From: Vectrevirus LI10P3
DNA length: 44,918 bases
Sequence record: OZ035798.1
Reading direction: 5' to 3' (one strand)
Shown: positions 1 to 44,918 of the stretch, in pieces
How the letters are laid out: each line of letters opens with the position of its first letter
Position numbering within the stretch: the first letter of the stretch is position 1
The notes under the pieces: generated by a model
Told to the model about the DNA's origin: nothing
Seen by the model: the letters and a program-made list of their open reading frames with translations, nothing else
The model's database searches: none
Translations under genes and position numbers: made by a program

Positions 1-29
1 TAATAAGTTCAAGATTTGGAGGGAGAAGC

Positions 30-329
30 GTGAGCGTACACAATAAACATGCAGCTACAGAGGACGAGGTTGGCATTCTGCATGGTGCTATTACCAAAAT
101 CTTCAATAAGAAAGCACAGGCAATACTGGACACTATAGAAGAAGACCCTGATGCAGCATTACATTTAGTGTCTGGTAAGGATATTGGTGCGATGTGTAAG
201 TGGGTTCTTGATAACGGCATTACCGCCACACCTGCTGCACAGCAGGAAGAGTCCCAGTTATCTAAGCGCCTCAAGGCTATCCGAGAGGCATCCAGTGGCA
301 AGATTATTCAGTTTACAAAAGAGGAGTGA
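30..329 (+). CDS. Terminase small subunit (gp18-like), GTG start
   Basis: 99 aa ORF directly after the holin and before the large terminase; GGAGGG RBS 6 nt upstream of GTG. Assignment is by position and size only. Confidence 0.5.
   Translation: MSVHNKHAATEDEVGILHGAITKIFNKKAQAILDTIEEDPDAALHLVSGKDIGAMCKWVLDNGITATPAAQQEESQLSKRLKAIREASSGKIIQFTKEE
121..143 (+). promoter_or_regulatory. Phage RNAP promoter-like site embedded in coding sequence
   Basis: caATACTGGACACTATAGAAGAAG matches the core of the repeated promoter consensus; upstream ATTTA is degenerate. Confidence 0.45.
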
Positions 330-2811: not shown

Positions 2812-3093
2812 ATGGCTAATGATTATAGTGATCAACCTTTAACTGGTCGATATGACCGTAAGCAGATTACACCGACCAGTGAGGCATTAATGCTCCCTGT
2901 TGTTACAGAGGAGTCTATTACGAAGAAAGCCAATGTTATCAATGATGCAACCAAATCTGGTAAACAGAAAGCAGCAATGGTATGTCGTCCTGTAGGTGGC
3001 ACTCTTGAGATTGCCATTGCTACTGGTAGCAAAGAGGATGCAGATTGGTTGTCTGTTAAAATGGACAGCGTTGGTCTTATTACACCGGCTTAA
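2812..3093 (+). CDS. Hypothetical protein, paralog A of a tandem pair
   Basis: 93 aa; shares SGKQKxAMV and IAIAxGS blocks with the next ORF. Confidence 0.6.
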   Translation: MANDYSDQPLTGRYDRKQITPTSEALMLPVVTEESITKKANVINDATKSGKQKAAMVCRPVGGTLEIAIATGSKEDADWLSVKMDSVGLITPA

Positions 3094-3110: not shown

Positions 3111-3398
3111 ATGTCTAAGTATGGCGATGCAGGTACGACTACTGGTCAGGTTTTTCGTGTAAAAGCAGTACAAACTATTGCAACTGCAATTCCTATGCCT
3201 ATCGTGGCAGAAGCTGACCTTAAAAAGAAAGATCATCCAATTAATATTGAACACCTATCTGGTAAGCAGAAAGGTGCTATGGTGGTTGTAGATAAAGGAG
3301 ATAGCCTTTATATTGCTATTGCGCGTGGCTCTGCACCAACTGACAAGTGGGATGCAACTACTATGGAGGTGACACCTGTCACTCCAGAAGGGGATTAA
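3111..3398 (+). CDS. Hypothetical protein, paralog B of a tandem pair
   Basis: 95 aa; AGGAG-like RBS; same conserved blocks as 2812..3093. Confidence 0.6.
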   Translation: MSKYGDAGTTTGQVFRVKAVQTIATAIPMPIVAEADLKKKDHPINIEHLSGKQKGAMVVVDKGDSLYIAIARGSAPTDKWDATTMEVTPVTPEGD

Positions 3399-3400
3399 TA

Positions 3401-3745
3401 ATGCTTAACAAATACTTCAAGCGTAAAGAGTTCGCTTGCCGTTGTGGGTGCGGTACATCCACTGTTGATGCTGAATTACTACAGGTAGTCACAGATGTGC
3501 GTGAGCACTTTGGTTCTCCTGTAGTTATCACTTCGGGGCATCGCTGTGCTAAGCACAATGCTAATGTAGGAGGGGCTAAGAACTCCATGCATCTTACTGG
3601 TAAGGCTGCTGACATTAAGGTACGAGGTATCTTACCTTCTGATGTACATAAGTATCTTACTGATAAGTACCAAGGCAAATATGGGATTGGTAAGTATAAC
3701 TCCTTTACTCATATTGATGTACGCGACGGGTGTGCACGATGGTAG
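3401..3745 (+). CDS. Endolysin, zinc peptidase M15 family (L-Ala-D-Glu peptidase-like)
   Basis: ATG 3401; SxHxxGxAxD motif (SMHLTGKAAD) plus downstream FTHIDVRD, as in VanY/M15 peptidases; lies in the lysis cassette. Confidence 0.75.
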   Translation: MLNKYFKRKEFACRCGCGTSTVDAELLQVVTDVREHFGSPVVITSGHRCAKHNANVGGAKNSMHLTGKAADIKVRGILPSDVHKYLTDKYQGKYGIGKYNSFTHIDVRDGCARW

Positions 3746-3853
3746 GTTGTGTTGCATGGTGTGAACGCATGGTTGCTAAGGCTTCAGAGGAAGGCAACTA
3801 TGAAGATTGGCAGAACTACTCAACTTTATTAGCTCAATGGAAAGGGAGATGCA

Positions 3854-4003
3854 ATGAAAAAGCTGTTCAAATCTAAGAAGGTTGTAGGTGCACTAGTTGC
3901 ATTGGCAATTGCTCTTGTTTCTGTAGGTCTTGGTGTAGACCTTGGCTCTGGCACGGAATCCTCTGTGACAGACGTGGTCTGCCAAGTGATCACCTGTGAA
4001 TAA
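3854..4003 (+). CDS. Small membrane or secreted protein (possible holin/antiholin)
   Basis: 49 aa; AGGGAG RBS; basic N-terminus then hydrophobic stretch VVGALVALAIALVSVGLGV. Confidence 0.4.
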   Translation: MKKLFKSKKVVGALVALAIALVSVGLGVDLGSGTESSVTDVVCQVITCE

Positions 4004-4217
4004 GTTTCTAGAAGTGCTGGCAGGTCTTATTGGCCTGCTTGTCTCTGCTAAGAAGAAACAAGAAGAGAAGGAGGCACAAAGTGAAGCGAATCATGTTAGT
4101 GACAATCCTGCTGATTGGTTCGCTGACCACTTCCGGGTGTCAGCAGGCGTTACCAGAGAAAGCAATGGTGAAACCTCTGAGGCCGACGCTGACGGAAGTT
4201 TACGAGGTAGACGATAA
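3996..4217 (+). CDS. Putative i-spanin (Rz-like), unusually short
   Basis: GTG start; N-terminal hydrophobic segment followed by charged KKKQEEKEAQ region; overlaps the lipoprotein ORF in another frame. Confidence 0.35.
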   Translation: MNKFLEVLAGLIGLLVSAKKKQEEKEAQSEANHVSDNPADWFADHFRVSAGVTRESNGETSEADADGSLRGRR

Positions 4218-4290
4218 GGTCTGCTTTAGTAAGCCTGACGCTACAAAATTAGGTTTGTATATTCTTTCGCTGGAACGCGGATATAATTAA
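4093..4290 (+). CDS. Putative o-spanin lipoprotein (Rz1-like)
   Basis: Signal-like N-terminus ending in lipobox-like LTTSGC, then Pro-rich segment; starts inside 3996..4217 and runs past its stop. Confidence 0.45.
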   Translation: MLVTILLIGSLTTSGCQQALPEKAMVKPLRPTLTEVYEVDDKVCFSKPDATKLGLYILSLERGYN

Positions 4291-4319
4291 TACATAGCTT
4301 TATGCATCAGTGTCTTACG

Positions 4320-4342
4320 ATTTACTGGACACTATAGAAGAG
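4320..4342 (+). promoter_or_regulatory. Phage RNAP promoter
   Basis: ATTTACTGGACACTATAGAAGAG, perfect consensus upstream of tailspike 1. Confidence 0.85.
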
Positions 4343-4421
4343 GTAAGATAGCGCCGTTCTTTTGAGCGGCCTATTACTAGCCAATCTTCATAGGGAGGGT
4401 TGGAAAGTAATAGGAGATAGC

Positions 4422-6320
4422 ATGGCTAAATTAACCAAACCTAATACTGAAGGAATCTTGCATAAAGGACAATCTTTGTATGAGTACCTTGATGCGAGAG
4501 TTTTAACATCAAAGCCGTTTGGTGCTGTAGGTGACGCCACTACTGATGATACGGAGGTTATAGCTGCTTCATTAAACTCTCAGAAAGCTGTCACAATCTC
4601 AGACGGTGTATTCTCTAGCTCTGGTATTAATAGTAATTACTGTAACTTAGACGGTAGGGGTAGTGGGGTGCTAAGTCACCGTTCCAGTACAGGTAACTAC
4701 TTAGTATTTAACAACCCACGTACAGGTCGCTTAAGTAATATTACGGTAGAAAGTAATAAGGCGACTGATACAACTCAGGGACAGCAGGTATCTCTTGCTG
4801 GTGGAAGTGATGTTACTGTAAGTGACGTTAACTTCTCAAACGTTAAAGGTACTGGTTTCAGTTTAATCGCATACCCTAATGATGCGCCACCTGATGGACT
4901 TATGATTAAAGGCATTCGAGGTAGCTATTCAGGCTATGCTACTAATAAGGCAGCCGGATGCGTACTTGCTGACTCCTCAGTTAACTCCCTCATAGATAAC
5001 GTCATTGCTAAGAACTACCCTCAGTTCGGAGCAGTAGAGTTGAAAGGTACAGCCAGTTACAACATAGTCAGTAATGTTATAGGGGCAGATTGCCAGCATG
5101 TAACTTACAACGGCACTGAAGGGCCAATAGCTCCTTCTAATAACCTTATCAATGGGGTGATGGCTAATAACCCTAAGTATGCAGCGGTTGTTGCAGGCAA
5201 AGGAAGTACGAACTTAATCTCAGACGTGCTCGTAGATTACTCAACTTCTGATGCTAGGCAGGCTCATGGTGTTACAGTAGAGGGTTCTGATAACGTCATA
5301 AATAATGTGCTTATGTCAGGATGTGATGGTACTAACTCTTTAGGACAAGGGCAGACTGCTACAATTGCACGCTTTATAGGTACAGCTAATAACAACTATG
5401 CGTCTGTATTTCCTAGCTACAGTGCTACAGGTGTTATTACTTTCGAATCCGGCTCTACCCGTAACTTCGTAGAGGTAAAGCACCCTGGCAGGAGAAACGA
5501 CCTTCTCAGTTCTGCTAGTACTATTGACGGTGCAGCTACTATTGACGGCACTAGTAATAGTAACGTAGTGCACGCACCTGCCCTAGGGCAGTACATAGGT
5601 AGTATGTCAGGTAGGTTCGAATGGCGGATTAAGTCCATGTCACTCCCTTCAGGCGTTCTTACTTCTGCTGATAAGTACAGAATGCTTGGAGATGGTGCTG
5701 TGTCATTAGCTGTAGGTGGGGGCACTTCTTCTCAAGTTCGCCTATTTACTTCTGATGGTACTTCTCGGACAGTGTCCCTCACCAACGGTAACGTGCGTCT
5801 TTCTACCAGTAGCACAGGCTTTTTGCAGTTAGGTGCTGATGCAATGACCCCAGACAGTACTGGTACATACGCATTAGGTTCCGCCAGTCGAGCATGGTCT
5901 GGCGGTTTTACTCAAGCAGCATTCACTGTTACCTCAGATGCTCGGTGTAAAACAGAACCTCTTACTATCTCAGATGCCTTACTAGATGCTTGGTCTGAAG
6001 TTGACTTTGTGCAGTTTCAGTATTTGGATCGTGTTGAGGAGAAGGGTGCAGACTCAGCTAGATGGCACTTTGGCATCATCGCTCAGCGAGCTAAGGAGGC
6101 CTTCGAACGTCACGGTATAGATGCACATCGCTATGGCTTCTTGTGCTTCGACAGTTGGGATGATGTATACGAGGAAGATGCCAATGGCTCTCGTAAACTG
6201 ATTACACCAGCAGGTTCCCGCTACGGTATTCGTTACGAGGAAGTACTGATATTAGAGGCTGCGTTGATGCGGAGGACTATTAAGCGTATGCAGGAAGCAC
6301 TAGCTTCCCTGCCTAAGTAA
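4422..6320 (+). CDS. Tailspike 1: beta-helix depolymerase with C-terminal intramolecular chaperone (S74-like) domain
   Basis: ATG 4422; N-terminal FGAVGDATTDDTEV pectate-lyase-like motif; Ser/Thr/Gly/Asn-rich core; C-terminal ~128 aa starting at SDARCK (nt 5934). Confidence 0.85.
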   Translation: MAKLTKPNTEGILHKGQSLYEYLDARVLTSKPFGAVGDATTDDTEVIAASLNSQKAVTISDGVFSSSGINSNYCNLDGRGSGVLSHRSSTGNYLVFNNPRTGRLSNITVESNKATDTTQGQQVSLAGGSDVTVSDVNFSNVKGTGFSLIAYPNDAPPDGLMIKGIRGSYSGYATNKAAGCVLADSSVNSLIDNVIAKNYPQFGAVELKGTASYNIVSNVIGADCQHVTYNGTEGPIAPSNNLINGVMANNPKYAAVVAGKGSTNLISDVLVDYSTSDARQAHGVTVEGSDNVINNVLMSGCDGTNSLGQGQTATIARFIGTANNNYASVFPSYSATGVITFESGSTRNFVEVKHPGRRNDLLSSASTIDGAATIDGTSNSNVVHAPALGQYIGSMSGRFEWRIKSMSLPSGVLTSADKYRMLGDGAVSLAVGGGTSSQVRLFTSDGTSRTVSLTNGNVRLSTSSTGFLQLGADAMTPDSTGTYALGSASRAWSGGFTQAAFTVTSDARCKTEPLTISDALLDAWSEVDFVQFQYLDRVEEKGADSARWHFGIIAQRAKEAFERHGIDAHRYGFLCFDSWDDVYEEDANGSRKLITPAGSRYGIRYEEVLILEAALMRRTIKRMQEALASLPK

Positions 6321-6405: not shown

Positions 6406-8118
6406 ATGCTTCAAAGATTAAGTGCTTACTTGGTGAAGTACAAGAGTAAACTAACAGGTACTATTGAGCGCCTGCTATCTGATAAACTATCGGATACAAT
6501 AGATGTTGCGGATTTTGGAGTTACTCCATCTTCCAATGACAACAGGCAAGCACTTCAAGCTGCGTTCAATGCAGTCAGAGTGTTAGGCGGTGGCACTGTA
6601 TTAGTCACTAAAGCTGGAAAATACAAACTCAGTGGTACTGTTGAGATATTTGCTAATACACACTTCAAGGTTGCTAAAGGTGTAACATTTGTACGTGACT
6701 ACGAAACAGGAGATACGCTATTCAGATTATCACAAGGGCAAGCTAGTAATGTAACAGTCAGTGGAGGTATCTATGAAGGCAATGGTCACACTAAGGGAGA
6801 TACACCTTTTGTAGTATTTGCATCTACTAGTAATAATGATTTGAAGTTTGAAGGCATAACAGTTAACAATGTAGTGGACTACCACGCCATAGATTTAGCA
6901 GATTGGAACAACGTAGTTATTCGTGATTGTAAATTCCTAGGTTTTAAGAATACAGGCAGTCGTAACTTCTCAGAGGCTATACAGTTAGACCCAGGTCTTA
7001 TTACAGTTGGTCACTATGTACAGTCAAGTGGTATGCTGGTGGAGAATTGCTATGCTGGTCCAAACACAGAATCAGGGTTTGGAGGTTATGGTGCACTAAT
7101 TGGAAATCACGCCTCAGCTTACGGTGTACAGGACAACAATATCCGTATCTTGAATTGCACTACAGATGGTGCTCTCTTTGCAGGTGTACGTGTATTTAAC
7201 TGGAAAAACTGGACAGTGCGTGGTTGCACATTTAGGAACTCTAATGCAAGAGGTGTCCATGTTACACCTTTCTCATCTCAGACTAAACCGCAGGGTACTC
7301 GACAAGGTAGTATTGTAGATTGCACTTTTGATGGCGTAAGGACACCAGTGCTAATTGCTGCACCATCTTGGCCTTTTACCGATATTAGTGACATTTGGCA
7401 TGACCATATTGAAATTTCTAATAATACTATGATCCTCACAGAGGATGTATCCTATGGTGTAGATGCAAGGTGGTGTAAGAATTTAATTGTAAAAGGTAAT
7501 ACAGGCTCTGGTGGCTTAGGGTTAATAGGTTTACGCTTTGGGACAAAATACCACATCGAAGGTAATACTTGGGAAAACGGAAGAGGTAGTGGGATTTGGC
7601 TAGGTGAGTCTGATGCTACTACATTCATTGGTACTGGTTTATCAGGAGAAGGTATACTTAGTCGTAATATCTTCTCTAAATTAGGGCAATATGGTATTCA
7701 TGTAAACTGCAAGGCTAGCGGTCTAGTGATTAAAGCCAATAATATGAAGGAGGTATCTACAGATGAAGCAGGTAGGCACTTCATTAGTATAGACACAGGG
7801 GCTAACAACATCCTAGTAGAAGGTAATATTGGAGTAGATGGAGAAAGCCCTAACAAGCCAAGCCTTGGTATTCGTGTTACTTCTTCTTGTTCCAATATTA
7901 AACTCATTGGCAATGATTGCTATGGCACACAGGCGCCTCAGAATAACCAAGGAGTCGGTTCTAGTACGGTGATTGTTTATGGACTAAATGGCAACCCTAC
8001 AACTTTAGGCGTAGGTGCACCTGTAGGCTCTTTAGCAACTGATATCAATGGTTCTGGTGGTAGTACATTGTACGTTAAAGAATCTGGTACATCTGCTCAA
8101 GGTTGGGTTGCAAAGTAG
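6406..8118 (+). CDS. Tailspike 2: pectate-lyase-superfamily beta-helix depolymerase
   Basis: 570 aa; GAGGAGG RBS; N-terminal DVADFGVTPSSNDNRQALQAAFNA motif; repetitive Gly/Asn-rich beta-helix-like sequence. Confidence 0.8.
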   Translation: MLQRLSAYLVKYKSKLTGTIERLLSDKLSDTIDVADFGVTPSSNDNRQALQAAFNAVRVLGGGTVLVTKAGKYKLSGTVEIFANTHFKVAKGVTFVRDYETGDTLFRLSQGQASNVTVSGGIYEGNGHTKGDTPFVVFASTSNNDLKFEGITVNNVVDYHAIDLADWNNVVIRDCKFLGFKNTGSRNFSEAIQLDPGLITVGHYVQSSGMLVENCYAGPNTESGFGGYGALIGNHASAYGVQDNNIRILNCTTDGALFAGVRVFNWKNWTVRGCTFRNSNARGVHVTPFSSQTKPQGTRQGSIVDCTFDGVRTPVLIAAPSWPFTDISDIWHDHIEISNNTMILTEDVSYGVDARWCKNLIVKGNTGSGGLGLIGLRFGTKYHIEGNTWENGRGSGIWLGESDATTFIGTGLSGEGILSRNIFSKLGQYGIHVNCKASGLVIKANNMKEVSTDEAGRHFISIDTGANNILVEGNIGVDGESPNKPSLGIRVTSSCSNIKLIGNDCYGTQAPQNNQGVGSSTVIVYGLNGNPTTLGVGAPVGSLATDINGSGGSTLYVKESGTSAQGWVAK

Positions 8119-37588: not shown

Positions 37589-40536
37589 TGGCAATTGAGC
37601 GACAAGCAGTACAAGGTCTGCCACAAGTGCAGGCCACTTCTCCTAATGTCATGACCTTTGCACCTCAGCGAGTTGGAGGTGTGGAGGCTGGCGTAGCTTC
37701 TACCTCCGGTAGTCGATTTATCGAAGACCTTATTCGAGCAGCCAGTAGTGTAGCTGATGTAACCACTGGTATCCTTAATCAAAAGATTGAGGAAGATAAG
37801 GTTGTTCAAATGGAACGGGCATATAACGGATTAATGCCTTCTGAGGATGCAACTCGTGGTGGCGCTCGTGCTAACATGCTTGTCAAAGCTCAACTGCTAG
37901 CTAATGATGAAGCAGCACGAATGAAAGACATGGCTACTCGTTTCCAAGGAACGGATGACGAGTGGACACAACTTATGGTTGACTCTCGTAATGAGATGCA
38001 GAATAAGCTGTTCCAGCAATACCCTGAGTTGCAAGGTGACAAAGATACTATGCGTATGGTCACTAATGTCTTCCAAGAACAGCAGCCTCAGATTTGGGCT
38101 ACACGAACCCAGCATAAACTTGACCGTGAACAAGCAGACCGTGAGGATACCTTTGACGGTCGAGTGGCTTCTACTTGGGATTCTAATATTGACCCTGAAG
38201 CCTCTGGCTATGCTTTACAGGAACGAATCCGCGAAGGTCTTACTCAAGGATTACTACCTGAACAGATGCACAAGAAGTTAGTCCAGCGAGCAATTTCACT
38301 TGCACAAGGCGGTGATGTTAGCATGGCTGAAGCCCTGAAGTATGTGAAGGACGATAAGGGTGTTTCTGTTTATGCTAAGAATCCACAGCTTATCACAGCC
38401 ATCACTAGTGGTAATGCAGTTTGGGCTAGGAATAATGTAGCTGATGTAACTCGTATGTCTTTCGAAGTTAAAGAATCCTACCTTGCAGGTGATTTAACTG
38501 ATGAAGAATTGTTGGAACGAGCACAGCACATTAATAATCTGACAGGTAACTCTGTCTTCTCTAATCCAGAGCTAGAGGCACTGATGCGCCAACGGGCTAA
38601 GCAGAATGCAGAGCTAGGTGCAATGCAGGATATGCGACGTGAGCTTTACTCCGACCGCCTGACTGGCTTCCAAGGTAAGACTGATAAAGAGAAGAAGGCT
38701 TACATTGATGTTATCAAACAGGATAGCCAACTTTATGCAGACCAGCAAATCAAACAACGTGGCTTGGACCCTTACAGTCAAGAGGCTGAAGCTATTCGTG
38801 GTGCAGTGGAAGTGCAGCGCCTGCAATTCATGAACTCCAAAGGCTTAGTGGATGATACCTTTGAGTCTCGTATCAAAGCCATGGAATCTATGCTATCGCC
38901 TGAGCACTTTGCCAAGGGCGAACCACAGGAGTTGATGACTATTCGCCAGTTGTGGGAACAGTTGCCAGAAGAGAGCCGAGGTGTCTTTGGTGACACGGTG
39001 AATGGCTACATGGATAACTACAACACTGCACTACAAATGGGAGAGACACCTTTGCAGGCTGCAAGGTTTGCGCGTGAAGCACAGCAGAAATTCTCTCGTA
39101 CTGAGAAGGAAACCAAGAAGTTCAACTCAGCTATTGGAGATGCACTGGATGAGGTATCTGGTGCTGGCTGGTTTGATGGTAAAACCGAAGTGTCAGACTT
39201 AGGTAAAGCTATTGCGGAAGAAGAGTTACGAGCTAAGGCCAATATGTTGTGGTCTAGTGGTATGCGTAACATGGATTCTATCAAGAAGGCTTTAATTACT
39301 TGGGGCAATAAACGCTACACTCAAACAGAGGATGCAAAGACTTCCGGTGGCTATTTCATTAAAGGTGATTACACTTCTGCATCTGATATGCTTATGTCAG
39401 TTGGGAAAGGCGTAAACCCTACCGATGTACCTCTGGCGCTTGGTAGGTATGTAGAAACACAGATGCCAGAATTGAAGAAGGAGCTTCAAGAGTGGGAAAC
39501 TAAAGATGATATATACATTGATTACAATGAACAGAAAGGAACTTTTGTGATTCGTGCTGGTGCAGCAGGTCGCCCTCTTTCTGGAGTAATCCCTGTAACC
39601 TCTTTAGATACTACTTCACTACTAGATTCTGCCTATCAGAAGAAAGTAGAGGAACGAGATAAAGGCGAGTATGTCCACCCGTATCGTACAGATATTGGTG
39701 CACAAGAGCCTATGCCAGCTAAACCAACTGCCAAAGATATTGGTAAATTTGGACTAGCTAACTTCCTCATGTCTTCTGCTTTTGCTTCTGGTGAGAATCT
39801 GCCTTCTAACTTCGAGATTAACTATCGAGGTAATATGCAACAATTCTATGACAAGCTAGCTATGGATGAGAATAAAGATAAAGTTGGCTTTAATAAGGCA
39901 ACTGGAACCTTTACTCCATATAAAGACGCTCGCGGTGAGTCTATCGGTTACGGTCATTTCTTAACGGAAGAAGAGAAGCGAAACGGGTATATTAAGATTG
40001 GTGATGAACTAGTTCCCTATCGAGGGTCTATGTCTCAGCTTACAGAGAGCAAGGCTCGCGCTCTTATGGAGCAAGATGCTAAGAAGCATGTGCCTCCTAC
40101 TCGTGACTGGAAGATTCCGTTTGACCAGATGCATCCTGCACAGCAACGTGGCTTGATGGATTTAACCTACAATTTAGGTAAAGGTGGAATCCAGAACTCA
40201 CCGCGTGCTTTTGCTGCATTCAAAGCTGGTAAGCTTACGGAAGGCTTTATCGAAATGCTGGGCACTGCATCAAGTGAAGGTAAGCGTATTCCTGGCCTAC
40301 TGAAGCGACGCGCTGAGGCATACAATATGGCATCTGCTGGTGGTGTGCCTAAGATTACCGAAGTGGAGACTCGTGAAGATGGCTCCATGTGGGTTAGGTT
40401 TGGTGGACCTATGCCAGCAGGTTCTGTCTCGGCATGGACTCATAAACGTATTGGCGCGGATGGTTGGTATCAGGTTTATGAGGCTGCACCTACCAAGTTA
40501 GCTAAAGGTTCTAAGGTAGGTAAATTTAAGTTGTAG
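37588..40536 (+). CDS. Internal virion (ejection) protein with C-terminal lysozyme-like domain
   Basis: 982 aa; region ~aa 780-930 (YKDARGESIGYGHFLTEEEK...GLMDLTYNLGKGG...KRRAEAYNM) resembles a T4-lysozyme-type (GH24) fold. Confidence 0.75.
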   Translation: MAIERQAVQGLPQVQATSPNVMTFAPQRVGGVEAGVASTSGSRFIEDLIRAASSVADVTTGILNQKIEEDKVVQMERAYNGLMPSEDATRGGARANMLVKAQLLANDEAARMKDMATRFQGTDDEWTQLMVDSRNEMQNKLFQQYPELQGDKDTMRMVTNVFQEQQPQIWATRTQHKLDREQADREDTFDGRVASTWDSNIDPEASGYALQERIREGLTQGLLPEQMHKKLVQRAISLAQGGDVSMAEALKYVKDDKGVSVYAKNPQLITAITSGNAVWARNNVADVTRMSFEVKESYLAGDLTDEELLERAQHINNLTGNSVFSNPELEALMRQRAKQNAELGAMQDMRRELYSDRLTGFQGKTDKEKKAYIDVIKQDSQLYADQQIKQRGLDPYSQEAEAIRGAVEVQRLQFMNSKGLVDDTFESRIKAMESMLSPEHFAKGEPQELMTIRQLWEQLPEESRGVFGDTVNGYMDNYNTALQMGETPLQAARFAREAQQKFSRTEKETKKFNSAIGDALDEVSGAGWFDGKTEVSDLGKAIAEEELRAKANMLWSSGMRNMDSIKKALITWGNKRYTQTEDAKTSGGYFIKGDYTSASDMLMSVGKGVNPTDVPLALGRYVETQMPELKKELQEWETKDDIYIDYNEQKGTFVIRAGAAGRPLSGVIPVTSLDTTSLLDSAYQKKVEERDKGEYVHPYRTDIGAQEPMPAKPTAKDIGKFGLANFLMSSAFASGENLPSNFEINYRGNMQQFYDKLAMDENKDKVGFNKATGTFTPYKDARGESIGYGHFLTEEEKRNGYIKIGDELVPYRGSMSQLTESKARALMEQDAKKHVPPTRDWKIPFDQMHPAQQRGLMDLTYNLGKGGIQNSPRAFAAFKAGKLTEGFIEMLGTASSEGKRIPGLLKRRAEAYNMASAGGVPKITEVETREDGSMWVRFGGPMPAGSVSAWTHKRIGADGWYQVYEAAPTKLAKGSKVGKFKL

Positions 40537-44769: not shown

Positions 44770-44918
44770 ATGATTAACTCCGAACTGGTAGATAGTGGTG
44801 TGAAGCTTGCGCCACCTGCACTCGTATCAGGTGGGTACTTCCTCGGTATCAGTTGGGATAATTGGGTGTTAATAGCAACATTCATTTATACCGTGTTGCA
44901 AATTGGGGACTGGTTTTA
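44770..44918 (+). CDS. Holin (gp17.5-like), truncated by the window end
   Basis: MINSELVDSGVKLAPPALVSGGYFLGISWDNWVLIATFIYTVLQIGDWF... parallels recalled T7 holin; ORF runs off the window. Confidence 0.65.
   Translation, partial: MINSELVDSGVKLAPPALVSGGYFLGISWDNWVLIATFIYTVLQIGDWF

Follow-up and report, generated by a model that had tools for sequence, protein, structure and literature searches.

How short, or how split, can a membrane-bridging or membrane-fusing system be? The lysis cassette of Vectrevirus LI10P3 (positions 3,854 to 4,290 of sequence record OZ035798.1, whose 44,918 nucleotides are the window analysed here) raises this question in testable form, as it includes a real third gene that is represented by at least 55 protein clusters and is constantly paired with a lipoprotein gene and a coupled membrane-protein gene. 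The final step of lysis by phages of Gram-negative bacteria is the work of spanins, and their mechanism is known almost wholly from the Rz/Rz1 pair of phage lambda. The K1-5/K1E/SP6 group, which comprises therapeutic and model phages, supplies the smallest and least convincing entries of SpaninDB, and the same three genes (gp44, orfX and gp45 below) carry the incompatible public names holin, i-spanin (the inner-membrane partner), o-spanin (the outer-membrane partner) and hypothetical. We tentatively read the three as a spanin-like module in which gp44 would be the anchor, orfX its partner and gp45 the o-spanin, a reading to which we give somewhat less than an even chance.

Under this reading, the T7-type holin would open the inner membrane, the M15 endolysin, which has no signal sequence, would then degrade the cell wall, and gp44, orfX and gp45 would then remove the outer-membrane barrier. 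That is, the inner-membrane side, which is one polypeptide in Rz, would here be split into two translationally coupled proteins: gp44, a putative single-pass anchor with its N-terminus inside and its C-terminus outside (N-in/C-out) and kin to small holin-like proteins, and orfX, a presumably helical protein of ~70 residues in which the motif (D/N)PxxWFxxHF is invariant and within whose gene the lipoprotein gene starts. The counterpart at the outer membrane would be the 50-residue mature lipoprotein gp45. Outer-membrane disruption by the module, the interaction of its three proteins and the location of orfX are what we infer here, and all functional statements derive from sequence and synteny.

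Four small genes behind the endolysin

The four tiny genes behind the endolysin (orfA, gp44, orfX and gp45; Table 1) are real. The preliminary description of this DNA had called the cassette atypical and had placed in it a 49-residue, a 73-residue and a lipoprotein open reading frame (ORF), all three of which are found where it put them; orfA was missing from that account. For the selection test, 33 non-identical relatives were taken from GenBank and IMG/VR and aligned, and codon-position variation and the Nei-Gojobori ratio of nonsynonymous to synonymous differences (pN/pS) were assessed in all three frames. Every segment was under purifying selection solely in the frame in which its gene had been proposed, with own-frame pN/pS values, in the part unique to each gene, of 0.33 for orfA (other frames at least 1.05), 0.32 for gp44 (1.40 and 1.96), 0.41 for orfX at 4004-4080 (1.18 and 3.48) and 0.14 for gp45 (1.07 and 3.83). 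Over the same orfX segment, the changes at codon positions 1, 2 and 3 of the orfX frame numbered 28, 16 and 47, respectively (chi-square p=5e-4). Within the 137-nucleotide overlap of orfX and gp45, the constraint changes hands: at 4081-4149 selection acts on the orfX frame (0.35) and spares the frame of the gp45 signal peptide (0.97), whereas at 4150-4217 it acts on gp45 (0.46) and leaves the orfX tail unconstrained (1.11). Therefore, orfX is a real protein of which the first ~51 residues matter, and the earlier claim that the lipoprotein gene begins inside the 73-residue gene and runs past its end holds for two genes under selection. A sequencing frameshift that merges the ORFs, which had been named as the alternative, is ruled out by the identical three-frame layout of more than 30 independently sequenced genomes together with the frame-specific purifying selection.

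The start of the lipoprotein gene follows from the same data. The GTG at 4081, 6 nucleotides downstream of the Shine-Dalgarno sequence AAGGAGG, gives a product of 69 residues, as annotated for gp45 of K1-5 and K1E. The upstream TTG at 4030 is a mechanical ORF start only; the extension that it would add is unconserved in the relatives, and its frame has a pN/pS of 1.18 over 4004-4080. For annotation, we recommend calling all four small genes and taking the GTG that follows AAGGAGG as the lipoprotein start.

The genes are tightly packed. The orfA ATG overlaps the endolysin stop (ATGGTAG), the 3' end of orfA overlaps gp44 by 23 nucleotides, and gp45 lies 336 nucleotides downstream of the endolysin stop. 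The GTG of orfX, within tGTGAATAAg, overlaps the gp44 stop by 8 nucleotides and is not preceded by a Shine-Dalgarno sequence for orfX; other lineages begin orfX with ATG or GTG, at a junction that reads ATGA, GTGA or TAATG. Judged by its letters, this junction pattern is a signature of translational coupling. A programmed frameshift from gp44 into orfX was considered and rejected: relative to gp44, orfX lies in the +1 frame in this phage but in the -1 frame in Gajwadongvirus and in several metagenomic cassettes. Since an ATG or GTG is always present at the junction, reinitiation coupling is indicated instead.

Table 1. Features of the lysis region and of the genes and signals around it (window coordinates).
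Feature	Coordinates	Strand	Remarks
T7-type holin, 5' part	44771..44918	+	K1-5 gp38 equivalent; continues at window position 1
T7-type holin, 3' part	1..46	+	overlaps small terminase gene (30-329)
Endolysin, Peptidase_M15_3, 114 residues	3401..3745	+	Pfam PF08291 E=3.1e-33; phrog_894 endolysin E=4e-45
orfA, 45-residue soluble Cys-containing protein	3739..3876	+	phrog_1312 E=4e-18
gp44, 49-residue membrane protein (predicted)	3854..4003	+	phrog_4712 'holin'; ORF read from sequence
orfX, 73-residue protein	3996..4217	+	phrog_9219 E=6.5e-33; GTG start
Shine-Dalgarno sequence AAGGAGG for gp45, within orfX	4068..4074	+	read in sequence; listed in SpaninDB for K1-5 and K1E
gp45, 69-residue lipoprotein precursor (predicted)	4081..4290	+	+1 frame relative to orfX; phrog_8971 'Rz-like spanin' E=4.5e-39
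Promoter-like sequence ATTTACTGGACACTATAGAAGAG for phage RNA polymerase	4320..4342	+	end of lysis cassette, start of tailspike unit

The three proteins and their relatives

gp45 begins with the signal MKRIMLVTILLIGSLTTSG, followed by the predicted lipidated Cys (codon 4138-4140) of the lipobox LTTSGC and by a mature part of 50 residues with one internal Cys. The lipoprotein signal noticed in the preliminary description is genuine, as MKRIMLVTILLIGSLTTSG followed by C fits the PROSITE PS51257-type lipobox pattern, with the same result for 22 of 22 homologues, and the +2 residue is Q here and never D in those homologues. Lipoproteins without Asp at +2 are sent to the outer membrane under the sorting rule of the Lol pathway, and gp45 looks, from these features, like an outer-membrane lipoprotein of the o-spanin class; its UniRef name is 'O-spanin'. 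Among the 22 homologues, the mature length is 45-53 residues, and one internal Cys stands at mature position 24-30 in 20. The AlphaFold2 (AF2) models of the orfX and gp45 monomers were used for secondary structure only; that of gp45, of low confidence (predicted local distance difference test, pLDDT, ~59), has a disordered linker of ~20 residues, a beta-hairpin and a C-terminal helix. The protein ends in ...KLGLYILSLERGYN and has no hydrophobic C-terminal segment of the kind that defines a unimolecular spanin. A supposed likeness between the gp45 C-terminus and the C-terminal motif of Rz found no support in hhalign or Pfam. As a separate observation, Vibrio phage vB_VpaM_R19R (980-1189 of the stretch examined), which is apparently temperate, has a lone lipoprotein with the same C-terminal motif (...YILDLERGYKQ) beside an integrase gene, with no orfX-type or gp44-type gene adjoining it.

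gp44 consists of MKKLFKSKK, a charge-free hydrophobic run of 19 residues and an acidic tail of 21 residues that ends in CxxxxC. The flanking charges are +5 on the N-side and -2 on the C-side (+4/+5 and -2/-3 across 13 lineages, in which the CxxxxC end is kept as well), and the KD19 hydropathy of 2.64 equals that of the transmembrane domain (TMD) of lambda Rz. gp44 is thus predicted to be a single-pass N-in/C-out anchor of the kind expected of an i-spanin, and SpaninDB remarks on its 'good TMHMM hit' (PMC6139136). Its tail and the mature gp45 add up to 71 periplasmic residues (21 + 50), which SpaninDB flags as 'Too short', although its accepted range starts at 62. The expected co-inheritance with an o-spanin is not seen: gp44 occurs without gp45 in the phages M186 and PP1 and is swapped for unrelated transmembrane proteins in remote cassettes that retain the lipoprotein family. 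As to the holin label that phrog_4712 bestows, gp44 has one TMD with its charged region at the N-terminus, and the genome already encodes a bona fide T7-family holin. The earlier suggestion that gp44 is holin-like survives as a distant link: a protein with two TMDs at the gp44 position of a remote cassette matches both holin PHROGs and phrog_4712 (E=5e-4), which weakly suggests that gp44 may be related to holin-like proteins.

orfX is laid out as a hydrophobic/amphipathic helix, KKK and a charged helix, the sequence DNPADWFADHF and an unconstrained acidic tail; its AF2 model (low confidence, pLDDT 59) has a helix at 2-30, a short helix at 37-44 over PADWFADH and a disordered tail. Hydropathy scripts were used to look for an anchor. 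The charge-free run is 12 residues here vs. 6 in Gajwadongvirus (where the hydrophobic moment is 0.58-0.61), with a family median of 10 and with no more than 2 of 49 clusters reaching 17 residues; no KD19 value exceeds 1.46 over 14 lineages, that of this phage being 1.25; and 46 of the 49 clusters have their K/R residues grouped after the helix, on its C-side. By these predictions, orfX is without a credible transmembrane segment family-wide and lacks the N-in/C-out anchor of an i-spanin. The accepted anchor of T7 gp18.5 is also weak on the same crude scales, and therefore the argument rests mainly on the family-wide pattern and not on this phage. One trait of i-spanins is present, namely that the o-spanin gene starts inside orfX in another frame. 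Searches of orfX against Pfam, NCBIfam and the spanin PHROGs gave no match, its single match being phrog_9219 ('unknown function'); hhalign probabilities against T7 gp18.5 and lambda Rz were below 1%; and none of gp44, orfX and gp45 has a relative in Pfam, NCBIfam or the Protein Data Bank. Two further ideas about orfX were dropped: a disruptin-like cationic peptide (its net charge is -3) and a supposed likeness of its N-terminus to T7 gp18.5, which hhalign and Pfam did not support.

The three genes recur far beyond the close relatives of LI10P3. By tblastn, orfX was found in 155 phage records and gp45 in 162; the corresponding search with gp44 was uninformative for co-occurrence, the low-complexity filter having confined its matches to close relatives. 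The gp44-orfX-gp45 trio is present in Vectrevirus, Zindervirus, Ulipvirus, Acadevirus and Gajwadongvirus (ECBP5, PP99, MR4), and in Vibrio JSF38, Aeromonas Aer_P220, Pantoea Nufs112, Erwinia VL73 and Edwardsiella WAG25P1; in Gajwadongvirus and these last five phages the endolysin is a transglycosylase, not an M15 peptidase. A search with the orfX profile through 1.84 billion representative proteins returned the orfX clusters mentioned above, which are mostly 60-80 residues long, include no long Rz-like protein and share a leucine-rich N-terminal helix, a basic cluster, KEQxxAQxEAD, (D/N)PxxWFxxHFxG and a low-complexity tail.

Eight remote metagenomic contexts were inspected. In all eight, orfX follows an endolysin gene (M15, lysozyme or DUF5675) and is overlapped by a phrog_8971 lipoprotein gene, and in seven its start is overlapped by the stop of a gene for a small transmembrane protein, the eighth being a fusion. 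These upstream proteins are of three unrelated kinds (phrog_4712, that is, the gp44 type; a holin-like type with two TMDs; and phrog_9685), and therefore the membrane protein seems always to be supplied beside orfX while its sequence is free. Two of the remote cassettes have, like the window, a separate holin recognised by Pfam, which argues that the small transmembrane protein is not the sole holin. More broadly, a small membrane-protein gene overlaps or abuts the orfX start in all contexts examined but the fused one, and gene order, coupling and overlap are conserved in 22 contexts. To regard gp44 as merely an extra membrane protein, as the preliminary description did, does not fit this nearly constant coupling, and SpaninDB and the CPT annotation in fact treat gp44 as the i-spanin.

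The fused case is a contig from the TARA metagenome (L070, 329-616; found in two samples) that encodes a 95-residue protein, P0120, in which a gp44-like TMD (RTVWGALLAITATISQLFGWDLGD) is joined to an orfX domain. It keeps the overlapping lipoprotein gene and has no separate membrane-protein gene, and may represent a Rosetta-stone link between gp44 and orfX. Conversely, two natural isolates, Klebsiella phage pKP-M186-2.1 (M186; 1480-1680) and Pectobacterium phage PP1 (1770-1990), keep a gp44-like gene and lack both orfX and the lipoprotein gene, with an SP6-type promoter directly after the gp44 stop. Spanins are dispensable in the laboratory, and the joint loss of orfX and gp45 from these two phages fits a laboratory-dispensable module.

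Weighing the readings

The natural fusion of a TMD to orfX supports treating gp44 and orfX as one functional unit. In their predicted features, neither of the two alone is Rz-like, whereas the coupled pair is, with an anchor and a charged helical protein that hosts the lipoprotein start. However, several observations weigh against a three-gene module. orfX has no export signal, and its basic cluster on the C-side, taken with the positive-inside rule, would confine the conserved domain to the cytoplasm, apart from gp45. The fusion, which points to the periplasm, is a single metagenomic contig; the periplasmic residues of the gp44 tail and gp45 are few enough to be flagged by SpaninDB; and the upstream transmembrane proteins of the remote cassettes have almost no periplasmic part. 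Co-occurrence of orfX and gp45 is weak evidence of interaction because their physical overlap alone makes both travel together, both AF2 models are of low confidence, and our literature search found no experimental or functional paper on this cassette. The indications for the location of orfX are hence contradictory, the positive-inside pattern suggesting the cytoplasm and the fusion suggesting the periplasm, and holin-dependent release would reconcile them. In such a scheme, orfX, being TMD-less and ~70 residues long, would be kept in the cytoplasm or at the inner face of the membrane and freed into the periplasm, like the endolysin, only when the holin opens the membrane; there it would link the lipoprotein, through its invariant WFxxHF motif, with the small membrane protein or, through its amphipathic N-helix, with the inner membrane. 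We consider it distinctly improbable, however, that the orfX family constitutes in this way an unrecognised class of outer-membrane disruption, a split, holin-released i-spanin spread across Autographiviridae and unrelated phages, including marine ones.

Alternatively, the cassette could encode a classical separated two-component spanin: the i-spanin would be gp44 and the o-spanin gp45, the Cys-rich tail of the former would be joined to the conserved C-terminal domain of the latter, and orfX would be an unrelated accessory or regulatory protein that fills the spacer by chance. SpaninDB lists K1-5, K1E and SP6 in this manner, as 'separated' spanins with gp44 and gp45 as the partners (Kongari et al. 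2018, PMC6139136), and CPT names gp44 the i-spanin of LL11 and Premi. gp44 does have the required N-in/C-out TMD, the CxxxxC end maintained across lineages suggests an oxidising, periplasmic location, gp45 offers one conserved internal Cys, intermolecular disulfides are general in spanins as argued by Kongari et al., and the periplasmic length falls inside the SpaninDB range of 62-300. Yet the curators themselves had doubts, remarking 'Too small?' and 'Too short' and giving the place just behind the endolysin as the sole argument for the pair (PMC6139136); gp44 persists without gp45 in M186 and PP1; and remote cassettes replace gp44 with Cys-less transmembrane proteins that have little or no periplasmic part, while the C-terminal motif of gp45 stays invariant. 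This assignment also leaves the conservation of orfX, its coupling to a transmembrane-protein gene and its constant presence unexplained, and we consider it unlikely.

A further reading, in line with the tentative one of the preliminary description, is that orfX is a minimal i-spanin of the overlapped kind for which the short helix at its N-terminus would be the anchor, with gp45 as the o-spanin and gp44 as a second holin-like protein or an antiholin. SpaninDB follows the same logic for UAB_Phi78, an SP6 relative that it lists as 'overlapped' with a 69-residue i-spanin (PMC6139136), this being the orfX orthologue, and the authors of the Nufs112 record call orfX 'Rz-like', while RefSeq calls gp44 'holin'. 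Part of this account stands: the +1 overlapped architecture is typical of Rz/Rz1-type pairs, orfX and gp45 form an invariant pair that is lost jointly, orfX has a charged helical region, its N-helix in Vectrevirus has a 15-residue hydrophobicity sum of 0.9 vs. 1.2 for T7 gp18.5, and the gp44 family is weakly linked to holin PHROGs. The anchor does not stand, since the N-helix family-wide is no TMD by the run lengths given above and the K/R residues on its C-side predict a C-in topology; nor does any homology to Rz, T7 gp18.5 or a spanin PHROG or Pfam family appear, and the constant, coupled upstream transmembrane-protein gene is left without explanation. On balance, we find an orfX that serves as i-spanin by itself rather doubtful.

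Finally, it is very unlikely that no periplasm-spanning complex is formed at all, with gp45 acting alone at the outer membrane or outside lysis (e.g., in superinfection exclusion) and the transmembrane protein and orfX acting as an antiholin-like regulatory pair on the cytoplasmic side of the inner membrane: the positive-inside pattern seen in orfX, the holin-like kin and tiny periplasmic parts of the upstream proteins, and the position of gp45 directly upstream of the tailspike genes in this phage speak for it, but the remote modules follow an endolysin gene and do not adjoin receptor-binding genes, an overlapped lipoprotein gene behind an endolysin is the classic position of a spanin, and a mature length of 45-53 residues with an invariant C-terminal motif, over hosts that range from E. 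coli to marine samples, argues against a host-receptor-specific exclusion protein.

Genomic setting and comparison with known systems

The window is a complete K1-5/K1E-like Vectrevirus genome (Autographiviridae, Molineuxvirinae), that of an E. coli phage of the K1-5/SP6 type, written in a rotated form. By megablast, 118 phage records match positions 3300-4400, the top match being Vectrevirus T205P4 (99%), with K1-5 at ~92%. The small terminase gene (PF11123, phrog_891) and the large terminase gene stand at the window start. Before them lies the separate holin that the preliminary description had reported, a T7-type protein whose joined 64-residue product matches the Pfam family PF10746 (Phage holin T7 family; E=1.5e-27, 95.5 bits vs. 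a cut-off of 25.4) and whose position before the small terminase is the same in LL11 and K1-5. The holin gene is cut by the window boundary, and therefore the window represents a rotated or circularly written complete genome; ORF listings miss this gene, which is split across the two ends. The M15 endolysin has neither a signal nor a signal-arrest-release sequence. orfA (MVGCVAWCERMV...WKGRC), whose family phrog_1312 is annotated as of unknown function, is found in most relatives, including Gajwadongvirus and Aeromonas phages with the other endolysin type.

The promoter-like ATTTACTGGACACTATAGAAGAG lies at the place where a promoter is annotated in Pm5460, and Kpp-61 and M186 have ATTTAGGTGACACTATAGAAGAG, the canonical SP6 version, at the equivalent site; we take ATTTACTGGACACTATAGAAGAG and ATTTAGGTGACACTATAGAAGAG to represent the SP6-type promoter consensus. 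No sigma-70 promoters or intrinsic terminators above shuffled expectation were found inside the cassette. Two tailspike genes follow (4362-6320 and 6406-8118). The first corresponds to the K5-lyase-type spike of K1-5 and LL11, and the second product (570 residues) agrees in size and position with the LL11 tail spike noted to have a glycoside hydrolase domain, and not with the K1-5 endosialidase, which suggests a host range that differs from that of K1-5. Upstream of the endolysin, two tandem paralogous genes (2812-3093 and 3111-3398; 93-95 residues; K1-5 gp41/gp42) bear the name 'acetyl-CoA acetyltransferase' (phrog_2725, RefSeq). Pfam and NCBIfam give no support for this enzyme name, the homologues in the Kp7 record are called 'minor capsid protein (with Ig-domain)', and the name looks like a propagated misannotation.

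The cassette itself has already been catalogued, so no discovery of new genes is involved. The spanins of K1-5, K1E and SP6 are orthologous to those described here (92-98% protein identity to K1-5) and share with them the Shine-Dalgarno sequences, the TSGC lipobox and the place after an M15 endolysin. SpaninDB passes over the 73-residue gene in these three phages, yet uses its orthologue in UAB_Phi78. The SP6 reference records carry a frame or label error: in AY288927.2, a coding sequence in the orfX frame is labelled 'o-spanin' (L060, 823-1020), in the RefSeq record NC_004831.2 orfX appears as gp48 (L005, 1005-1223), and the actual lipoprotein ORF, located at 39670-39880 according to SpaninDB, is missing from the SP6 records.

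Compared with the established two-component systems, lambda Rz/Rz1, T7 gp18.5/18.7 and P2 LysB/LysC, the cassette is alike in that the gene for a small lipoprotein with an internal Cys starts within another lysis gene, in the +1 frame, downstream of the endolysin gene. It has no sequence similarity to these spanins by Pfam or hhalign. The difference lies on the inner-membrane side: Rz-type i-spanins (115-153 residues in the examples read) combine their own TMD with a long helical periplasmic domain, whereas here the host gene encodes ~70 residues and the predicted TMD is on a separate 49-residue protein. The unimolecular spanin gp11 of T1 resembles gp45 as a short lipoprotein in a lysis cassette, but gp45 has, in place of a C-terminal TMD, a short amphipathic C-terminal helix that ends in LERGYN. 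Similarly small are the 'separated' spanins that SpaninDB lists for the VP4/ICP3 Vibrio podophages, from another group of Autographiviridae (a 47-residue i-spanin candidate and a 65-residue o-spanin, the latter with ~49 mature residues), which by their listed lengths fall in the same size class. Relative to the sources searched, the TMD-poor orfX family and the three-gene pattern in which it occurs are new.

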